Shown here: one piece after another, positions 3,358 to 33,936 of the stretch
How the letters are laid out: each line of letters starts with the position of its first letter
Numbering within the stretch: position 1 is the stretch's first letter
Virus genome (UHGV): UHGV-1338014
Strand: one strand, 5' to 3'
Length of the DNA: 34,123 nucleotides
DNA from: a virus
Made by a program: the position numbers and the translations under genes
Notes under the pieces: generated by a model
What the model was told of the DNA's origin: nothing
Databases searched by the model: none
What the model saw: only the letters and a program-made list of their open reading frames with translations

Positions 3358-4296
3358 ATGAATATTTCCGATATTCGCGCAGGACTGCGCACGCTTGTAG
3401 AAAGTGAAAAAGCGACTTATGCACAAATTGCACGCGAGTCTGGCGTGGCCGCAGGAACGTTAAGCGCATTCGTGAATAACAAGTACAACGGCGACAATGA
3501 ACGTGTTGCGCAGACGCTGGAACGCTGGCTGGAGAACTATCACCGTGCCGCAGAGCTGCCAGAACCACCACGTTTTGTGGAAACCAGAACAGCACGCCAA
3601 ATCTGGACGAGTATGCGTTTTGCCAGCCTGACTGAAAGTATTTCTGTTATCTGCGGTAATCCAGGTGTGGGAAAAACTGAAGCGGCCCGCGAATTTCGTC
3701 GCACCAATAACAATGTCTGGATGATCACCATTACCCCATCCTGTGCCAGTGTTCTGGAATGCCTGACTGAACTGGCTTATGAACTGGGAATGAATGACGC
3801 ACCACGCCGTAAGGGGCCACTCTCCCGCGCTTTGAGACGCCGTCTTGAAGGTACGCAGGGGCTGGTCATTATCGACGAAGCTGATCATCTTGGCGCTGAG
3901 GTTCTGGAAGAACTCCGCCTGTTACAGGAGTCCGCCCGTATTGGCCTTGTTCTGATGGGGAATCACCGCGTTTATTCAAACATGACCGGTGGTAACAGAA
4001 CGGTTGAATTTGCCCGACTGTTTTCCCGTATTGCCAAACGGACGGCAATCAATAAAACCAAAATTGATGATGTAAAGGCCATTGCGGATGCCTGGCAGAT
4101 TACCGGCGAAAATGAGCGGGAATTATTACAGCAGATTGCGCAAAAACCAGGTGCGCTTCGCATCCTGAACCACTCGCTGCGCCTTGCGTCCATGACCGCC
4201 CACGGCAAAGGTGAACGTGTTAATGAAGATTATCTGCGTCAGGCTTTCCGTGAATTAGACCTGGACGTTGATATTTCAACTCTGCTGCGCACGTAA
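3358..4296 (+). CDS. B: Transposition target-DNA activator MuB (AAA+ ATPase, 312 aa)
   Basis: Directly downstream of A; Walker A motif GNPGVGKT and Walker B-like VIIDEAD; length as Mu B. Confidence 0.93.
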
Positions 4297-27289: not shown

Positions 27290-27738
27290 CGACAGGAATC
27301 CGCTGGAATAACATGCTCTCACGGGGTGACATCACCGTCACCCATAACGGCCTCTCACGGGATGAGGGGCTGGTCACTCAGGTTCTTATCTGCCTTTTCA
27401 CCGATGCCCGCGCTGATGACGATGATGTCATCCCTGATGGTTCCGGCGACCCGCGTGGCTGGCCGGGCGACACATACAGCGATTTTTCGTGGGGTTCCCG
27501 CCTGTGGCTGCTTGAGCGTGAAAAGCTGACGGAAGATGTCCGCCTGCGCGTGGAAGATTACGCACGGCTGTCCATGCAACCGCTGCTGCGGGCCGGTTAC
27601 GCCCGTAACGCCACTGTCACGGCCAGAATCATCGCCCCTGACTGTATTGCCTTTCAGGTGGTGTTAACCCGCCCGGACAAAACCACGCTCACAATCGAAA
27701 TCACCCGTCGATGGGAGGCCACCATTAATGCCGTATGA
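27286..27738 (+). CDS. Baseplate protein gpW / gp25-like, Mu gp46 (150 aa)
   Basis: Size and position. Confidence 0.65.
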   Translation: MTTGIRWNNMLSRGDITVTHNGLSRDEGLVTQVLICLFTDARADDDDVIPDGSGDPRGWPGDTYSDFSWGSRLWLLEREKLTEDVRLRVEDYARLSMQPLLRAGYARNATVTARIIAPDCIAFQVVLTRPDKTTLTIEITRRWEATINAV

Positions 27739-28804
27739 AATCCCCACGCTGGGCAAACTGATTGCCGACGGCGAAAAAGATATTGCGTATGAACTCGGCC
27801 TGCAAAAGCTGCCGCCTGTCAGTGTTGAGCAGGCGCTGAACGTGTCATTCAGCAGTCAGGTCCGGGATTTATACGACCATCAGAGCTGGATTAAGGACCA
27901 GATAATCCCGTCCACCACGTCTGATGATGAAACCATTATCAAAACAGCAACGTATGAAGGGGTTATCCGCAAACAGGCCACCTTTGCCAGCGGGCCGGTG
28001 ACCTTCACCAGTCAGTCTCTCCTTCCGGCTGAAACACGGATGCAGTCCGACACGAATCAGGTGTACCAGGTGCTCACATCCGGTGAGGTACGGGACGGCG
28101 AGGTCACCGTCATTGTGCAGGCTGAAGAAGCCGGGGTGGCGGGTAATCTTGCTGCCGGTGCCGTGCTGACCCTGTTATCTCCGCTGCCCGGAACGGCCAG
28201 TGCAGGCGTGGTGGCTGAAGGTGGCATCACCGGTGGCGCAGACACTGAATCCATCGCGGAGCTGCTGGACCGTCTGCTGTATGTGCGTCGCAATCCCCCG
28301 GTGGGCGGTGCTCTGCATGATTACGTCATCTGGGCTCGCGAAGTGGCTGGCGTCAGCCGCGCGTGGGCGTGGGATGCGTGGCACGGCCCCGGCACGGTCG
28401 GACTGGCATGGCTTTACGATGACCGTGAAGATATTGTACCGACCCGCAAAGACCTGAAGACAATGGAGCAGTATCTGTTCTGCCACAAACACCCGGCCAC
28501 TGGGGTTATGGTGGGCAAACCGGGCGGCATTGAGGTCTGGCCGGTTCAGGTCAGGCTGAAGAAAGTCGACCTGTCCATCCGTCTGACACCGGACGGCCAG
28601 GCAAACAGGAACGCCGTCCGGGCAAACCTGACCGCATTACAGAAAACGCTGGCCCCTGGTCAGATGCTGCCGGTGTCCTCGCTGCGCACGGCCATCGGTA
28701 TGACATCCGGCATTACAGATTACTTTCTCAACATCGGGGAAGACACCACCAGTGATGTGGATGAGCTTATCACCATCGGGGAGGTGACATGGCTCACAGC
28801 GTGA
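27728..28804 (+). CDS. Baseplate J-like protein, Mu gp47 (358 aa)
   Basis: Size and position. Confidence 0.7.
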   Translation: MPYEIPTLGKLIADGEKDIAYELGLQKLPPVSVEQALNVSFSSQVRDLYDHQSWIKDQIIPSTTSDDETIIKTATYEGVIRKQATFASGPVTFTSQSLLPAETRMQSDTNQVYQVLTSGEVRDGEVTVIVQAEEAGVAGNLAAGAVLTLLSPLPGTASAGVVAEGGITGGADTESIAELLDRLLYVRRNPPVGGALHDYVIWAREVAGVSRAWAWDAWHGPGTVGLAWLYDDREDIVPTRKDLKTMEQYLFCHKHPATGVMVGKPGGIEVWPVQVRLKKVDLSIRLTPDGQANRNAVRANLTALQKTLAPGQMLPVSSLRTAIGMTSGITDYFLNIGEDTTSDVDELITIGEVTWLTA

Positions 28805-29763
28805 CGGAATGGCTGACCGCACTGCAACAGGTCATGCCACGGGGTAAAGCATGGACGCGTGATAACGACGCGGATTTAAACCGTTTTTTAAGGGCGCTTG
28901 CAGCGCGTTTAACCCGCATTGAATACGACGCCTCGCGTCTGCATGTGGAGATGCGCCCGGAAACCATGCTCCAGCTGCTGCCGGAGTGGGAGCAGTATCT
29001 GGCGCTGCCGGAATGCGGAATTGCCGCCACCACAACGGAAGCCCGCCGTCGTGCCGTGGTGGAGAAATACCGCCGCAAGGGTGGGCTGGCAACCTGGCAG
29101 ATTGAAGCCGCTGCTGCGGCGCTGGGCTTCACCATCAAGGTGACGGCCGTTCTGCCGCATCACTGCCTGCGCGACTGCATGTACCCGCTGCATCCGGCGC
29201 GGTATCGCTGGCTGCTGAAAGTGGAGGTTCAGGACAGCGACGCCGGGCGTTTTACCTGTGTTGATGATGTCATGACACCATTAATCAGCGGACGCACCCG
29301 CGAGCTGGAATGTCTCCTGAAAAATTACCGCATGGGTGGAACAGGGTATGAGTTTTTTTACACCGATGGTAACGATGAGGCTGTGTCCGGTCCGCCATTA
29401 TCCGTTAATCGCATACAGATTCAGGCCGGATATAAACCAGAAGAACCGTTAACGGTTAACTGTGCAGGGCTGCATTTTGCACTTGTTCCGGCACTGACAG
29501 GTAAGCCGCTGACAATTAACCGGATTAACTTTTATGCCGCCCGTCCGACGGCAGAACCACTGGTACTCAGCAGGGCGCAATTGCACTCAGGTCTGCCGAC
29601 AACGGACCCCATGACCATGAGCAGCGCACAGTTGCAGACGGGATACAGGACCCGCTCCCCCGTACCGGTTAACAGTATGCAGTTGCAGACAGCCAACAGA
29701 ACCCGTGAACCGTTATTGATTAATCACCCGGGACTGCATTTTGCTGTGGTCACGTCCGAATGA
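28789..29763 (+). CDS. Tail protein, Mu gp48 / P2 gpI-like N-terminal domain with a C-terminal repeat extension (324 aa)
   Basis: About 190 aa gpI-like region, then about 130 aa made of degenerate peptide repeats (…N-R-I-Q-I-Q-A-G-Y… / …A-Q-L-Q-T-G-Y… / …M-Q-L-Q-T-A-N…) and two copies of HPGLHFA-like ends. Confidence 0.65.
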   Translation: MAHSVTEWLTALQQVMPRGKAWTRDNDADLNRFLRALAARLTRIEYDASRLHVEMRPETMLQLLPEWEQYLALPECGIAATTTEARRRAVVEKYRRKGGLATWQIEAAAAALGFTIKVTAVLPHHCLRDCMYPLHPARYRWLLKVEVQDSDAGRFTCVDDVMTPLISGRTRELECLLKNYRMGGTGYEFFYTDGNDEAVSGPPLSVNRIQIQAGYKPEEPLTVNCAGLHFALVPALTGKPLTINRINFYAARPTAEPLVLSRAQLHSGLPTTDPMTMSSAQLQTGYRTRSPVPVNSMQLQTANRTREPLLINHPGLHFAVVTSE

Positions 29764-29786
29764 CATAAAATAAAAGGAGAGCCGCT

Positions 29787-30845
29787 TTGAATATTATTAA
29801 ACTCGAAAGTTTTCGACAAATTCCGGCGAATGAGGGATTGTGCGAGAACTATTATTCAACAAATATTATTTCAGCACTGAACGAAAACGGTGTCACGCTT
29901 ATCAATGATATGTCCGGTTCTGTAACATCCGTCTGTCGTGGCACTCAGGCCGTAAATACTGTAGAAAGAACGGGGCTGATTTTTACGACACCCTCATATG
30001 TCACACTGTACAGCACACTTCCGGACTTAAAAGCCTCAGCTGTACAGCTGGGATTTCGTCTGACATTAAGTGCGGGAAAGAAATATTCATCTTCGCCATC
30101 CCACATCAGGATTAATGGCTATTCATTTACAACCCCGTATCCTGATGAAGCAGCCAGTTATTACTATGAAATTTTCGCAACGCGAAACGAAAACGGCTAT
30201 GTCTCAGCCAGTCTGTACTGCAACCGCTCATTAGTTGGAAATGCATCGTTTTATGTATCAGATGACCGGACTGACAAAATTCAGGTGAGTATTGGTAGTG
30301 GTGACAATATTTTTTCATCGGGTGCATCCGGCACGTTAATGCTGGGTGATATGTACTGTGGAACAGTGGCATACGGAAAAAATAACAGCGCGGAACCCGC
30401 CCTGCTCGGAAGTATTGAGGTCAGATACAGCCCGGTAACGGCATTTACCGGTGGAAGCGCCAAAAACTCACTGAATAAAGATATTGTCACGGGGCTGAAC
30501 ACCTCTGACAGCGAGGCCGGATATCTGATGCTCTCGCCGTCCCTGAATGCAGCACAGGCCACGTTTGGTGCGGTGGATAACAGCAACAGTGATGTTGTGG
30601 CTGTTATGGCCTCGGTCACTTACCGCGGTGCTGATGCCCCCAATAACCGCCTGGCCTGGAAAGTGAAAAATGGCAGCCATGCAGGCGCAACGATTACAGA
30701 GAATGGCGTACAAAGCGACACAAACAGCTGGACGACTGTCTCACAGAGTTTTATGACCCAACCAGGAGGGAACACTCCCTTCGCTAAGGGTGAGCTGACT
30801 TTTACAGCGGAGTTGTTTAATCAGGCAAGGAGCGCTACTGAATAA
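29787..30845 (+). CDS. Hypothetical Ser/Thr/Asn/Gly-rich protein, probable tail-fibre or receptor-binding component (352 aa, TTG start)
   Basis: AAAGGAGA RBS 6 nt upstream of TTG 29787; lower GC than flanking genes; beta-rich composition. Confidence 0.55.
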   Translation: MNIIKLESFRQIPANEGLCENYYSTNIISALNENGVTLINDMSGSVTSVCRGTQAVNTVERTGLIFTTPSYVTLYSTLPDLKASAVQLGFRLTLSAGKKYSSSPSHIRINGYSFTTPYPDEAASYYYEIFATRNENGYVSASLYCNRSLVGNASFYVSDDRTDKIQVSIGSGDNIFSSGASGTLMLGDMYCGTVAYGKNNSAEPALLGSIEVRYSPVTAFTGGSAKNSLNKDIVTGLNTSDSEAGYLMLSPSLNAAQATFGAVDNSNSDVVAVMASVTYRGADAPNNRLAWKVKNGSHAGATITENGVQSDTNSWTTVSQSFMTQPGGNTPFAKGELTFTAELFNQARSATE

Positions 30846-30887
30846 TAAATATCTCTGTATACACAATATCAGGAGAAATAATCAGAT

Positions 30888-31958
30888 ATGTTTCACATTG
30901 ATAATAATACTGGCGTGCCGGTTATGCCGCCCGTCGCGGCTGAATACAGTAAAACGACGCTTTATTTCACCGAAGGAGGGAACGGTATTCCACCCACGTA
31001 TCCGGGGCCGGACTGGTTTAATATCGTGCAGTCCGAAATGCTGGAAATTCTCCGGCAGGCAAATATCAAACCGGACAAAAACACGACCAACCAGATTATG
31101 ACGGCGCTGAAAAAGCTGTTTATCACTAACAGTGGTTCAGCCGGGGCTATTGCCGAATTAACCGGTCAGAATAATACGTTCCCGTATTTTACGGGCGAAG
31201 ACACAATGTCATTAACGCCACTCAGTGCGTTTGTGCGCAGTATTCTCGGCAAAGAAAGTGCAACAGATTTTGCAGATGCACTGAAAGTCATAAAACAATC
31301 AGGCGACACGATGACAGGAGAGTTGAAAATCCGTGGTGTTAATGCGCTGAGGATTTTCGACGAAGCCTTTGGCCTGATTTTTCGTCGTTCGGAAGAGTGC
31401 CTGCACCTTATCCCTACCAGTGAAGGTCAGGGCGAGAATGGCGATATTGGTCCACTTCGCCCGTTCGCTATTAATCTGCGGACGGGTGAAATATCCATGT
31501 CGCATAAAGTGTCTGTTGGCGGTGGTTCGCAGGTCAATGGTGCGCTGGGTATCGGCGTTCAGAACGCGCTGGGCGGAAACTCAATTGCTTTCGGGGATAA
31601 CGATACCGGCCTGAAACAGAATGGTGACGGCATTCTGGATGTTTATGCGAATAACCAGCATGTGCTGCGTTTTCAGAGTGACAGCATTCAGAGCAATAAA
31701 GCAGTAAACGTTACAGGGCGGGTAACACCGTCAGACTACGCAAATTTTGATGCCCGCTATAAGCAGAGGACGGAGGGCGTGGAGGATATCCGGCTGGGAG
31801 GCCAGAGGGTCGACGGACACTATGATGATGATTTTACCGTTCCTTCAGGGTATGTCGTGGTTGGTGGTGATGTGCATCCTTCAACGTCATTAAAGCTGTA
31901 CTCAAGACCCCTTCAGAAATTAATTAATGGCACCTGGTATAACGCGGCGAGTGTATAA
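30888..31958 (+). CDS. Tail fibre protein (356 aa)
   Basis: N-terminus MFHIDNNTGVPVMPP...GIPPTYPGPDWFNIVQSEMLEIL resembles the conserved N-termini of enterobacterial phage side tail fibres; followed by a tail-fibre assembly gene. Confidence 0.7.
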   Translation: MFHIDNNTGVPVMPPVAAEYSKTTLYFTEGGNGIPPTYPGPDWFNIVQSEMLEILRQANIKPDKNTTNQIMTALKKLFITNSGSAGAIAELTGQNNTFPYFTGEDTMSLTPLSAFVRSILGKESATDFADALKVIKQSGDTMTGELKIRGVNALRIFDEAFGLIFRRSEECLHLIPTSEGQGENGDIGPLRPFAINLRTGEISMSHKVSVGGGSQVNGALGIGVQNALGGNSIAFGDNDTGLKQNGDGILDVYANNQHVLRFQSDSIQSNKAVNVTGRVTPSDYANFDARYKQRTEGVEDIRLGGQRVDGHYDDDFTVPSGYVVVGGDVHPSTSLKLYSRPLQKLINGTWYNAASV

Positions 31959-31960
31959 CA

Positions 31961-32506
31961 ATGCTTCATTTAAAAAATATTACTGCGGGTAATCCGAAAA
32001 CGGCAGAGCAATATCAGATGACAAAGCGGCATAGTATTGTCTGGCTTTTTTCGGAAGATGGCAAAAACTGGTATGAAGAACAGAAGAATTTTGCCAGCGA
32101 CACCATAAAAGCAGCCTATAACGACAGCGGGCGCGTGGTGTGGGTCGGTAAGGATGTGACAGGTATCGAACCCACTAACGTCAGTATCATTGAACTCCCG
32201 GATATTACTGCTAACCGCCGCATCACCGTACCGGGATACTGGTTTTACCGCAATGATGAATTTGTTTTTGATTACAAATTAAAAGCAGAAGACGAGCGTG
32301 ATACCCTGTTACAACAGACCAGCATCATGACCAGCGAATGGGAAAAAGACCTGCTGTTGGGATTAATCAGCGACGAAGACAGGGAAAAGCTGAAAGCGTA
32401 CCGTATTTACGCAAAGGCGTTGCAGGCGATGGATTTAAGCACCATCACCGATAAAACCACATATAACGCCATTAACTGGCCGGAGCGTCCCGATGCCGCA
32501 GCTTAA
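31961..32506 (+). CDS. Tail fibre assembly chaperone (Tfa / Mu U-like, 181 aa)
   Basis: Typical Tfa size and position immediately 3' of the fibre gene. Confidence 0.75.
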   Translation: MLHLKNITAGNPKTAEQYQMTKRHSIVWLFSEDGKNWYEEQKNFASDTIKAAYNDSGRVVWVGKDVTGIEPTNVSIIELPDITANRRITVPGYWFYRNDEFVFDYKLKAEDERDTLLQQTSIMTSEWEKDLLLGLISDEDREKLKAYRIYAKALQAMDLSTITDKTTYNAINWPERPDAAA

Positions 32507-32963
32507 AGGTGTGATTAAAACGCCCACAGGAGAACCGCTGGGCGGCACAACCATCACGCTGACCTCCCTGCACAACCGTGCAGGGATTCTGAAAGGTGTT
32601 TTCAGCCACGTCACTACACAGAGCGGGGAGTACGACTTCCCCGTTCTGCCGGGCGTGTACAGTGTTCGCCTGACACAGAGCGCACAGCGCCTTTCAGAAA
32701 TCGGCATCATTCGCGTTTATGAAGATTCACAGGACGGTTCGCTTAACGATTTTTTGTCGGTGACAGATGCAGATTTGCGCCCTGAATCTCTTAAAAAGTT
32801 CGAAGAGATTGCAATGCAGATACAAAAAAGTGCGGAAAGTGTCAGATTATATGCAGAGGAGGTGAAACGGGATTGCGCAATTACCCTCGAAAACAGAAAA
32901 CAGACAGAGAGACTGCTGTCCCTGATAGCAGAGCCTCTTTCTCAGAGTGCCGCAGAAAGCTGA
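32493..32963 (+). CDS. Stand-alone prophage tail-fibre N-terminal domain protein (156 aa), likely remnant of a second fibre gene
   Basis: IRVYEDSQDGSLNDFLSVTDADLRPE matches the hallmark motif of the lambda-type side-tail-fibre N-terminal domain; the ORF stops after about 156 aa with no fibre shaft. Confidence 0.6.
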   Translation: MPQLKGVIKTPTGEPLGGTTITLTSLHNRAGILKGVFSHVTTQSGEYDFPVLPGVYSVRLTQSAQRLSEIGIIRVYEDSQDGSLNDFLSVTDADLRPESLKKFEEIAMQIQKSAESVRLYAEEVKRDCAITLENRKQTERLLSLIAEPLSQSAAES

Positions 32964-33003
32964 CTCAAAAAAGGTTAATAATTAAGCGTTTTGTATAGAT
33001 TAT

Positions 33004-33100
33004 GACGATCGATACCATCATATCGATCGTCGTTTTACATCATGTGTGGTTAAATATCCCCAGCCCTCCGGGTGGTCGTATCTGGTTATTACACAGGGGG
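33004..33100 (+). promoter_or_regulatory. com-mom regulatory region with a perfect 11-bp palindrome carrying two GATC sites
   Basis: GACGATCGATA-N6-TATCGATCGTC at 33004..33031 (GATC at 33007..33010 and 33025..33028), followed by the promoter region and the com RBS. Mu mom is known to be controlled by Dam methylation upstream of its promoter. Confidence 0.6.
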
Positions 33101-33104
33101 AATC

Positions 33105-33290
33105 ATGGACTCTGTTCGCTGTAAAAACTGCAATAAGTTACTGTTTAAAGGAGGTTTTAAGCATATAGAAATTAAATGCCCTCGCTGTAAACGTTACATT
33201 GTCATATCGAATGCCAAAGAGCATCCCACGGAGCTGTATTGTGGGAAAAGAGAAGAAATCACGCATTCTGACAAAACCCTGCGTTATTGA
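33105..33290 (+). CDS. com: Com, zinc-finger translational activator of mom (61 aa)
   Basis: CKNC...CPRC zinc-finger motif; small ORF overlapping the 5' end of mom; AGGGGG RBS before ATG 33105. Confidence 0.85.
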
Positions 33291-33936
33291 GTATGAAGGC
33301 CGGATTGTCGGCTATGGTTCAAAGGAGTTGCGCGTTGAAACCATATCCTGCTGGCTGGCCCGCACAATCATTCAGACAAAGCATTATTCCCGCCGTTTTG
33401 TGAATAACTCCTACCTGCATCTGGGCGTATTCAGCGGACGTGATCTGGTTGGCGTTCTTCAGTGGGGATATGCCCTTAATCCCAACTCAGGGCGTCGTGT
33501 CGTGCTTGAAACAGATAACCGGGGTTACATGGAACTGAACCGCATGTGGTTACACGACGACATGCCCCGCAATTCTGAATCACGGGCCATCAGCTACGCG
33601 CTGAAAACCATCAGGTTACTGTATCCGTCAGTGGAGTGGGTTCAGTCCTTTGCAGACGAACGCTGCGGGCGTGCTGGCGTGGTATATCAGGCGTCGAATT
33701 TTGATTTTATTGGTAGCCATGAAAGCACATTCTACGAACTGGACGGCGAGTGGTATCACGAGATAGCGATGAACGCGATTAAGCGCGGAGGTCAACGAGG
33801 CGAGTATTTGCGGGCTAATAAGGAACGGGCAGTGGTACACAAATTTAATCAATATCGCTACATCAGGTTCCTGAACAAGCGCGCAAGAAAACGCCTAAAC
33901 ACCAAACTATTCAGGGTTCAGCCATACCCGAAGTGA
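33199..33936 (+). CDS. mom: Mom DNA-modification protein (anti-restriction adenine modification)
   Basis: Last gene before the right end, overlapping com. The frame is open from 33199, but the real start may be the internal GTG at 33241, which would give 231 aa. Confidence 0.85.

Follow-up and report, generated by a model that had tools for sequence, protein, structure and literature searches.

The 34,123-nt virus genome UHGV-1338014, hereafter the window (the whole stretch of DNA that was analyzed, at its full length), is a complete Mu-like transposable prophage, in which the baseplate gene gp48 (28789..29763, plus strand) encodes a 324-aa protein with a C-terminal extension built from 17-residue repeats. 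We propose, with a probability of roughly 0.6, that this extension works as an adaptor on a tether, by which a lectin-like protein encoded by the following gene is recruited as an accessory receptor-binding protein, and that it also serves as a homology joint for swapping this partner. The proposal is based on the repeat structure of the extension, the selection acting on it, its occurrence on unrelated tail proteins, its strict co-occurrence with the partner gene, and the fold predicted for the partner.

Wedge Core and Extension of gp48

Residues 1-194 of gp48 (28789..29370, plus strand) were assigned to the Mu gp48/YmfQ baseplate wedge domain from Pfam, PHROG, an alignment with Mu, and AlphaFold2 (AF2) modeling. 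The match to the Pfam family PF10076 (Phage_Mu_Gp48) covers only aa 11-191 (101.3 bits, with a cut-off of 37.4), PHROG 203 (baseplate wedge subunit) covers aa 1-199 (E = 2.6e-60), and the 180-aa gp48 of Mu aligns with aa 4-196 at 31% identity, ending where the extension begins. The per-residue model confidence (pLDDT) is approximately 80-90 over the core. The gene position is also that of the family, as gp48 stands directly after gp47 (Baseplate_J, 27728..28804), the end of which overlaps the gp48 start at 28789, and genes for gp44, gp45, and gp46 are found upstream. Since the Pfam match is limited to aa 11-191 and Mu gp48 has 180 aa, the window protein, at 324 aa, exceeds the single-domain length of the family (~180-200 aa) by about 130 aa, which agrees with the estimate made in an earlier, sequence-only reading of the window. 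The core is thus an ordinary member of the Mu gp48 family, the definition of which does not cover the additional 130 aa.

A search of 5.8 billion proteins retrieved 74 homologs of gp48, the overwhelming majority of which (69/74) are 178-200 aa long. The nearest homologs of the core, P0003 (91% identity, 194 aa) and P0004 (92% identity, 190 aa), both lack the extension, which was identified in only about 5 of the 74 proteins, namely P0002 (324 aa), P0034, P0036, and P0037 (319-321 aa), as well as fragments. The cores of P0034, P0036, and P0037 are quite different from the window core. Alignment with homologs, proposed in the sequence-only reading as a check of uniqueness, therefore reveals an extension that is far from universal in the family; no phage genome in INPHARED has it.

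Repeat Organization of the Extension

The core is followed by an acidic/glycine linker read from the sequence (NDEAVSGP, aa 195-202; 29371..29394, plus strand), which separates it from the repeats. Residues 203-324 constitute seven units of 17-20 aa each, arranged as 2 + 5. The pre-module (29395..29505, plus strand), delineated by the repeat statistics, comprises unit 1 (PLSVNRIQIQAGYKPEE, aa 203-219) and the cap-like unit 2 (PLTVNCAGLHFALVPALTGK, aa 220-239). The core five-unit module (29506..29760, plus strand), defined by alignment and covered by the phmmer matches described below, comprises four 17-aa units (PLTINRINFYAARPTAE, aa 240-256; PLVLSRAQLHSGLPTTD, aa 257-273; PMTMSSAQLQTGYRTRS, aa 274-290; PVPVNSMQLQTANRTRE, aa 291-307) and a hydrophobic C-terminal cap (PLLINHPGLHFAVVTSE, aa 308-324).

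The repeat is real, with a period of 17 aa, and far above chance, which confirms the degenerate repeats suspected at first sight. The ungapped BLOSUM62 self-diagonal sum at an offset of 17 aa equals 111, compared with a mean of -12 (sd 8, maximum 30) in 2000 shuffles, and the sum-of-pairs score over the seven units corresponds to z = 15. The unit consensus derived from 49 units is P-L-T-I-N-R-A-Q-L-Q-S-G-Y-R-T-S-E, in which P at position 1 is found in 44 units, I or V at position 4 in 42, N at position 5 in 39, L at position 9 in 34, Q at position 10 in 33, G or A at position 12 in 47, and E at position 17 in 34. The two HPGLHFA-like motifs mentioned in the sequence-only reading are present in two copies, CAGLHFALV in unit 2 and HPGLHFAVV in unit 7, but only the second copy is terminal in the protein (..GLHFAVVTSE), whereas the first closes the pre-module.

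The same reading had pointed to matching repeats in the DNA, which hold only in part. There are exactly two copies of the sequence CTGCATTTTGC in the window, one at 29470 (29470-29480) and one at 29734 (0.03 expected), because they contain the codons of the two LHFA motifs. Tandem Repeats Finder reported no DNA-level tandem repeat, and the DNA repeat search yielded a single weak 26-nt pair, 51 nt apart, with 81% identity; a tandem repeat at the DNA level was therefore rejected, and the repeat is a feature of the protein.

No known family was found for the extension in Pfam (E <= 10), NCBIfam, or PDB sequences by profile and single-sequence searches, and no description of the module came up in the literature searched, which covered YmfQ, Mu gp48, the triple beta-spiral, and the sequence motifs. 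The PF03406 (Phage_fiber_2) profile has no match on the extension even at E <= 10, and in the side-tail-fiber (Stf) carriers described below PF03406 is a separate element upstream of the module. A collagen-like fold, suggested at first as one form of adaptor, was ruled out, as the extension has no G-X-Y runs and its 17-residue period has P at position 1 and G/A at position 12. Another candidate was the triple beta-spiral shaft repeat of adenovirus and reovirus fibers, with the pattern xPLxVxxxxLxLxxx. Both the shaft and the module have short repeats of ~15-17 residues, a P-L-x-[VI] start, and a second hydrophobic strand, but the likeness was not supported on testing and was rejected, as there is no match to Pfam Adeno_shaft at E <= 10 and none among PDB sequences. 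The position matrix of the unit, applied to an Ad5 shaft sequence, gave no more than 7 bits, as compared with 22-38 bits for its own units (P ~0.06-0.18).

Substitution rates clearly point to purifying selection on the module. In the comparison of the window with the lambdoid copy L003, the ratio of non-synonymous to synonymous rates (dN/dS) is 0.30 for the five-unit module and 0.13 for the first two units, and the range for the module is 0.13-0.30 at synonymous divergence (dS) of 0.85-1.36. The pre-module is old and under purifying selection as well, since its comparison with Escherichia coli ETEC6 gives dS of 1.19 and dN/dS of 0.25. In the AF2 monomer model, aa 194-324 of gp48 have a pLDDT of 27-46 and form only short isolated strands, the alignment there containing ~7 sequences. 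On a beta-helical fold, the other form of adaptor named in the sequence-only reading, a model of such low confidence speaks neither way. The low confidence is compatible with folding on binding or oligomerization, and the poor modeling of the lone module, together with the flexible linkers ahead of all modules, would fit an element that is ordered on binding.

Carriers and Distribution of the Module

A word-indexed protein search with the extension alone produced one match only, and an exhaustive phmmer search was needed, which retrieved eight proteins from 1.84 billion representatives. One of the eight, a giant-virus capsid/RCC1 protein, was rejected as spurious. The other matches and P0073 represent three carrier types, and the module is located at the extreme C-terminus of every carrier. 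The first type is the Mu-type gp48, with four lineages: the window type, the ETEC6 type, P0078 with an Ig-like insert, and the plasmid type (L013). The second type includes N-terminal stubs of lambdoid side tail fibers (PF08400 + PF03406; P0073, P0077, P0079, P0080, L016, and L017), among them an uncalled 314-aa ORF in Raoultella (L016) and a 202-aa stub (L017). The third type is a P2 gpH-like N-terminal stub (PF12571; P0081), present in L008, L011, and L028.

A low-complexity, acidic or proline-rich linker precedes the module in all carriers. Most modules contain 5 units, some have 2 + 5 or 3 + 5, and L017 has 3; a constant five-unit rule was rejected given this 3-unit version and a degenerate 64-aa remnant in L015. 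Ten five-unit modules (the window and nine others, from the three carrier types) can be aligned without gaps except for two short insertions in P0080, and the protein-level motifs are kept even between modules that are 34-45% identical. The distribution of the module is narrow, comprising Escherichia and Raoultella and approximately 1% of complete E. coli genomes.

Several observations concern individual carriers and their annotation. The gp48-module genes of ETEC6 (L001, 5385..6344) and of the 249-kb plasmid NZ_OZ547097.1 (L013, 1621..2577) are intact, encoding 319-330 aa, and yet the NCBI pipeline (PGAP) calls them pseudogenes, "incomplete, missing C-terminus", leaving the module unannotated; the label is an annotation artifact. 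In ~35 complete E. coli genomes the module stands under the annotation "none". The plasmid locus (19.4-27.9 kb) is a Mu-type baseplate and fiber cluster adjoining ssb and parB genes, and its gene order is unusual: gp48-module, fiber, tail fiber assembly chaperone (Tfa), partner. The remnant in L015 is a free-standing 64-aa ORF (3794..3988) with a degenerate module-like tail (…LPLVIKHAVVSVGHENVLPVLTGRTWLTYLIQN), situated between a module-less Stf stub and the most divergent partner homolog (41% identity), and possibly represents an adaptor that has been split or is decaying.

Partner Gene and Its Co-occurrence with the Module

The gene downstream of the extension (29787..30845, plus strand) encodes a 352-aa phrog_8291 protein. 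It has no match in Pfam or NCBIfam, including none to the Caudo_TAP profile (PF02413), and PHROG 8291 is annotated as function unknown. The AF2 model, obtained with 25 homologs, is all-beta (pLDDT 90.6, pTM 0.89). Foldseek comparison of this model with PDB retrieved legume lectins and the binding domain of botulinum toxin, and comparison with BFVD yielded full-length matches to phage proteins (TM 0.6-0.68), including a "virion structural protein" of Achromobacter phage AchV4. The model agrees with a concanavalin A-like lectin/glucanase jelly roll, with a sequence identity of 6-15% to the structural matches. The partner is thus confidently predicted to be a concanavalin A-like double jelly roll, which would fit a carbohydrate-binding or carbohydrate-cleaving virion protein.

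Each individually inspected module-bearing gene has a homolog of the partner beside it (51-99% identity). In IMG/VR, 28 loci with a relative of the partner were found, one of which starts inside the partner gene and was therefore left out; all 27 evaluable loci have a same-strand ORF ending in the module. The partner is located 22-30 nt downstream of the module in 25 of them, and fiber and Tfa genes lie between the two in the remaining 2 loci, as well as in plasmid locus L013. The reverse scan, performed with the module, revealed no partner-less locus among those with downstream DNA available. A probe for the module-partner junction matched 60 of 5426 complete E. coli genomes, and 55 of the 60 were contiguous at >=98.8%. 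Species-representative genomes contain the partner at a single locus, in E. albertii, and none was found in INPHARED phages.

The genomic context of the pair varies with the carrier. The lambdoid loci L003 and L009 have the order J, Lom, stub-module, partner, and then the prophage end, with no long fiber and no Tfa. The stub and the partner here replace the full Stf/Tfa pair and are followed by no later fiber gene, which suggests a distal receptor-binding position for the partner. L017, which is closely related to the window phage, has a short gp48 and bears the module and partner instead on an Stf stub between Tfa and Com.

Cassette Boundaries and Recombination

The short-gp48 relative L004, the contig of P0003, has the order gp47, gp48 (194 aa), 269-aa fiber, Tfa, Stf-like fiber, DUF4376 protein, Com, Mom. 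DNA homology between the window and L004 is lost at ~29369 (after ...YTDG) and regained at ~30885, just before the fiber ATG at 30888. The extension and the gene 29787..30845 therefore constitute one inserted cassette of ~1.5 kb (29369..30885, plus strand), which is absent from L004.

In ETEC6 (L001), the same extension continues, in frame, a gp48 whose core is unrelated, as is the gp47 before it, and a 350-aa version of the partner follows. The window segment 29420..30831 is 96.5% identical to ETEC6 DNA, whereas the DNA of the gp47 and gp48 cores shows no relationship. Identity rises from ~55-70% to >=93% at ~29470-29490, that is, at the first GLHFA motif, and dS is 0 for the five-unit part, in contrast to 1.19 for the two-unit part. 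The dS contrast and the identity jump inside the extension indicate a recent recombination within the module, with the partner gene carried along. The five-unit module differs from that of ETEC6 by three non-synonymous changes (T>M, S>N, and N>S) and zero synonymous ones, numbers too small for interpretation, although unusual beside the dS of 1.19 in the two neighboring units.

The earlier suggestion of a site of recombinational shuffling is thus borne out as far as mosaic joints are concerned, which occur at the start of the extension and inside it. They have the look of ordinary recombination, homologous or illegitimate, at a conserved linker. A dedicated recombination site was rejected: no invertase gene and no invertible fiber segment were found between Tfa and com (31961..33936), where Mu has the G segment and gin, and the inverted repeats do not exceed 18 nt at 72% complementarity.

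Two further joints were observed in other genomes. In E. coli E92 (NZ_CP119734.1; L002, 5001..5163), a degraded Mu-like prophage has retained 163 nt after the gp48 core, equivalent to window positions 29365..29527, joined to a mom remnant, the rest of the fiber region being deleted. In P0039 (324 aa, from a 1.8-kb Logan contig), a Baseplate_J (gp47) sequence runs in frame into the linker and module (…LPLTPV|ESGEGQQAALTINSL…), and both the gp47 C-terminus and the entire gp48 core are lacking; the protein represents a natural deletion variant or else an artifact of assembly.

Proposed Role of the Extension and Alternative Explanations

According to the proposed mechanism, gp48 would be a chimera of a wedge core (aa 1-194), a short flexible linker, and a portable C-terminal adaptor module, and this module and gene 29787..30845 would form one functional cassette. 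The module is envisaged as a tethered docking element that would bind the lectin-like protein and hold it on the virion. The wedge core in the baseplate would carry the normal fiber on a loop, and the module would recruit a second receptor-binding element, with an accessory, probably carbohydrate-binding, protein on each of six wedges besides the conventional fiber. Since the module sequence is conserved, it may also provide a homology joint for partner exchange between phages and tail anchors. The initial notion of a fiber-attachment module is thereby kept in modified form: the extension is a module added to gp48 and linked to the fiber region, but its constant companion is the 352-aa lectin-like protein, not a conventional fiber. 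A more far-reaching version, which we regard as tentative, is that the repeat array with its cap represents an anchor-agnostic "plug", a single polypeptide segment that mounts the lectin-like protein on gp48 and on lambdoid or P2-type stubs alike. If true, this would be a natural plug-and-socket system for adding a receptor-binding protein or moving it between siphovirus and myovirus tails, with a docking principle and stoichiometry unlike the usual trimer-on-trimer fiber joints and with direct use in host-range engineering.

Several points weigh against the adaptor interpretation. Modules that are 36-38% identical to that of the window (the P0079 and P0081 types) are paired with partners that are 90-99% identical; given this lack of strict co-variation, the interface would have to rest on the consensus positions, or else the linkage is partly historical. 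The concanavalin A-like fold is generic and no proof of receptor binding, and conservation of the partner is fairly even along its length, with no conserved attachment end as opposed to a variable receptor end. The low AF2 confidence of the module may just reflect the shallow alignment. In addition, the carriers differ in their expected oligomeric state, gp48 being present in one copy per wedge and the fiber stubs being trimeric, and a single docking geometry for both needs explaining.

The strongest competing explanation, which we nevertheless consider unlikely, reverses the roles of the two proteins: the module itself would be the appendage, a whisker or fiber shaft that may contact the cell surface, and the 352-aa protein would be a non-virion folding or assembly chaperone. 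Genes for chaperones of the Tfa and gp38 types also stand immediately downstream of their clients, the module does not fold alone in AF2, and the lambdoid loci with a stub and a partner have no Tfa gene, the role of which the partner could fill. The partner, however, resembles neither Caudo_TAP nor any chaperone family. Its model shows a large lectin-like jelly roll with two domains, and its full-length structural neighbors include an annotated virion structural protein. Moreover, the 50-120 polar residues of a module are a poor candidate for a receptor-binding domain, and the partner is separated from the module by fiber and Tfa genes in L013.

Still less probable is that the extension is the attachment site of the conventional tail fiber and the 352-aa protein a hinge or connector between them. 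The fiber gene (30888..31958, plus strand; PHROG 6859 tail fiber, Pfam gp37_trimer) encodes 356 aa with a Mu gp49-like N-terminus (38% identity to Mu gp49) and a T4 gp37-like C-terminal part. The order gp48-extension, 352-aa protein, gp37-like fiber, Tfa, found likewise in L001, L005, and L010, mirrors the T4 genes 34-35-36/37-38, and the partner presumably comes close to T4 gp35 in size. The docking of the fiber argues otherwise. Its N-terminal 132 aa are 89% identical to those of the fiber of L004, which has neither the extension nor the partner, and they are homologous to the N-terminus of Mu gp49, a trimer that was found by cryo-EM to be anchored on a loop of a single gp48 chain, residues 133-155 (PMC11915804). 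The corresponding segment of the window gp48, aa ~148-171 (29230..29301, plus strand), is the likely fiber-docking segment; in the alignment with Mu gp48, DDVMTPL is paired with DNVLTPL, and aa 152-165 are the only low-confidence part of the core model (pLDDT <50). By homology, and as in Mu, the core loop of gp48 is the most likely docking site of the 356-aa fiber, which would have no need of the extension because the same N-terminus is used in the extension-less relative. The gene orders elsewhere also disagree with a hinge, as L003, L009, L016, and L017 have the module and partner with no fiber gene after them, and full fiber and Tfa genes precede the partner in L011 and L013.

We consider it highly improbable that the extension has no structural role and is a conserved DNA linker promoting recombinational exchange of downstream host-range genes. 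Such a linker would account for the mosaic joints at the start of the extension and inside it and for the near-identity of the five-unit part and partner gene in the window and ETEC6 between unrelated flanks, but it leaves unexplained why substitutions in the protein bear the signature of purifying selection, why protein motifs are kept in modules of only 34-45% identity, and why the module invariably forms the very C-terminus of the protein and ends in a conserved hydrophobic cap. Finally, the notion that the long ORF is an artifact or a pseudogene reading through into junk, for which only the PGAP annotation of L001 and L013 speaks, is refuted by the intact frames in these loci and in 27 IMG/VR loci, by the evident purifying selection, and by the conservation of the module on unrelated carriers.

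Under the adaptor interpretation, three kinds of tail anchor appear to bear the same lectin-like protein by way of one small repeat module; among them is a baseplate wedge subunit, which normally has no such appendage. As receptor-binding proteins set the host range of phages, their exchange and mounting matter for evolution and for the engineering of phages and tailocins. If the binding is confirmed, the module would be a compact transferable docking tag of ~85 residues with a defined partner fold, and it would explain E. coli prophage genes that the NCBI pipeline mislabels as truncated pseudogenes. Because the family is narrow and its function inferred, we rate the general significance as moderate.

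Other Genes of the Window and Related Loci

The window contains, in order, a repressor-like gene (minus strand), MuA, MuB, terminase, Mu portal, and gpT capsid genes, then genes for the sheath, the DNA-circularization protein, the gp44 hub, gp45, gp46, gp47, and gp48 with its extension. Fiber genes, Com, and Mom follow. The conventional fiber is followed by the 181-aa Tfa (31961..32506, plus strand; Pfam Caudo_TAP and PHROG 136), the gene end of which is overlapped by a 156-aa ORF (32493..32963, plus strand) with the lambdoid "prophage tail fiber N-terminal" domain (PF08400). This ORF stops without a shaft, module, or receptor end. The equivalent position is occupied in the relative L004 by a full 464-aa Stf-like fiber and the DUF4376 protein, and in L017 by the 202-aa stub ending in the 3-unit module, followed by a phrog_8291 homolog. 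The ORF looks like a truncated remnant of a second fiber locus in the Mu-like phage. Com (33072..33290) and Mom (33199..33936) are both located in the window.

A gene for an alpha/beta-hydrolase (Ndr/Hydrolase_4) was observed on the opposite strand just downstream of the fiber or cassette region in several unrelated prophages (L005, 10099..10887; L009, 3112..3891; L014, 5957..6490, minus strand). It may be a moron.

Comparison with Known Systems

The closest relative is Mu gp48 itself, with which the window protein shares the core family, the position after gp47, and the conserved docking-loop region. In principle the two are also alike in that a single wedge chain offers a peptide segment for a receptor-binding protein (PMC11915804). 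Mu gp48, however, ends at residue 180, whereas the window protein adds a linker and seven repeats associated with a second, non-fiber protein.

Two-part fibers are known in several phages, including T2/S16 gp37 with gp38, T4 gp34-gp35-gp36-gp37, and the branched tailspike adaptors of CBA120/G7C-type phages. In these, too, the anchor protein terminates in a docking region, the gene after it encodes the receptor-binding unit, and both move together as one cassette. The system described here is related to these adaptors neither in sequence nor in fold; it combines a predicted concanavalin A-like double jelly roll with a docking region of 17-aa repeats, and it differs further in that one and the same module occurs both on a monomeric wedge protein and on trimeric fiber stubs.

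In the type VI secretion system (T6SS), "foot" loops of TssG bind TssK, and in T4, gp7, at the homologous wedge position, binds gp10. These systems resemble the proposed one in that a wedge subunit at the gp48/gpI/TssG position recruits a peripheral receptor- or membrane-binding component, but they use internal loops or large extra domains rather than a C-terminal repeat array, and no homology was detected. The lambdoid Stf (PF08400 + PF03406) with its Tfa is related in a different way, since N-terminal stubs of Stf themselves carry the module (P0073, P0079, P0080, L016, and L017); in these module-bearing versions, the module and the phrog_8291 protein stand in place of the long shaft and the receptor-binding end, and often of Tfa as well. 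Taken against these systems, the extension and its partner are rated as an undescribed, narrowly distributed variant of the modular receptor-binding-protein adaptor theme.

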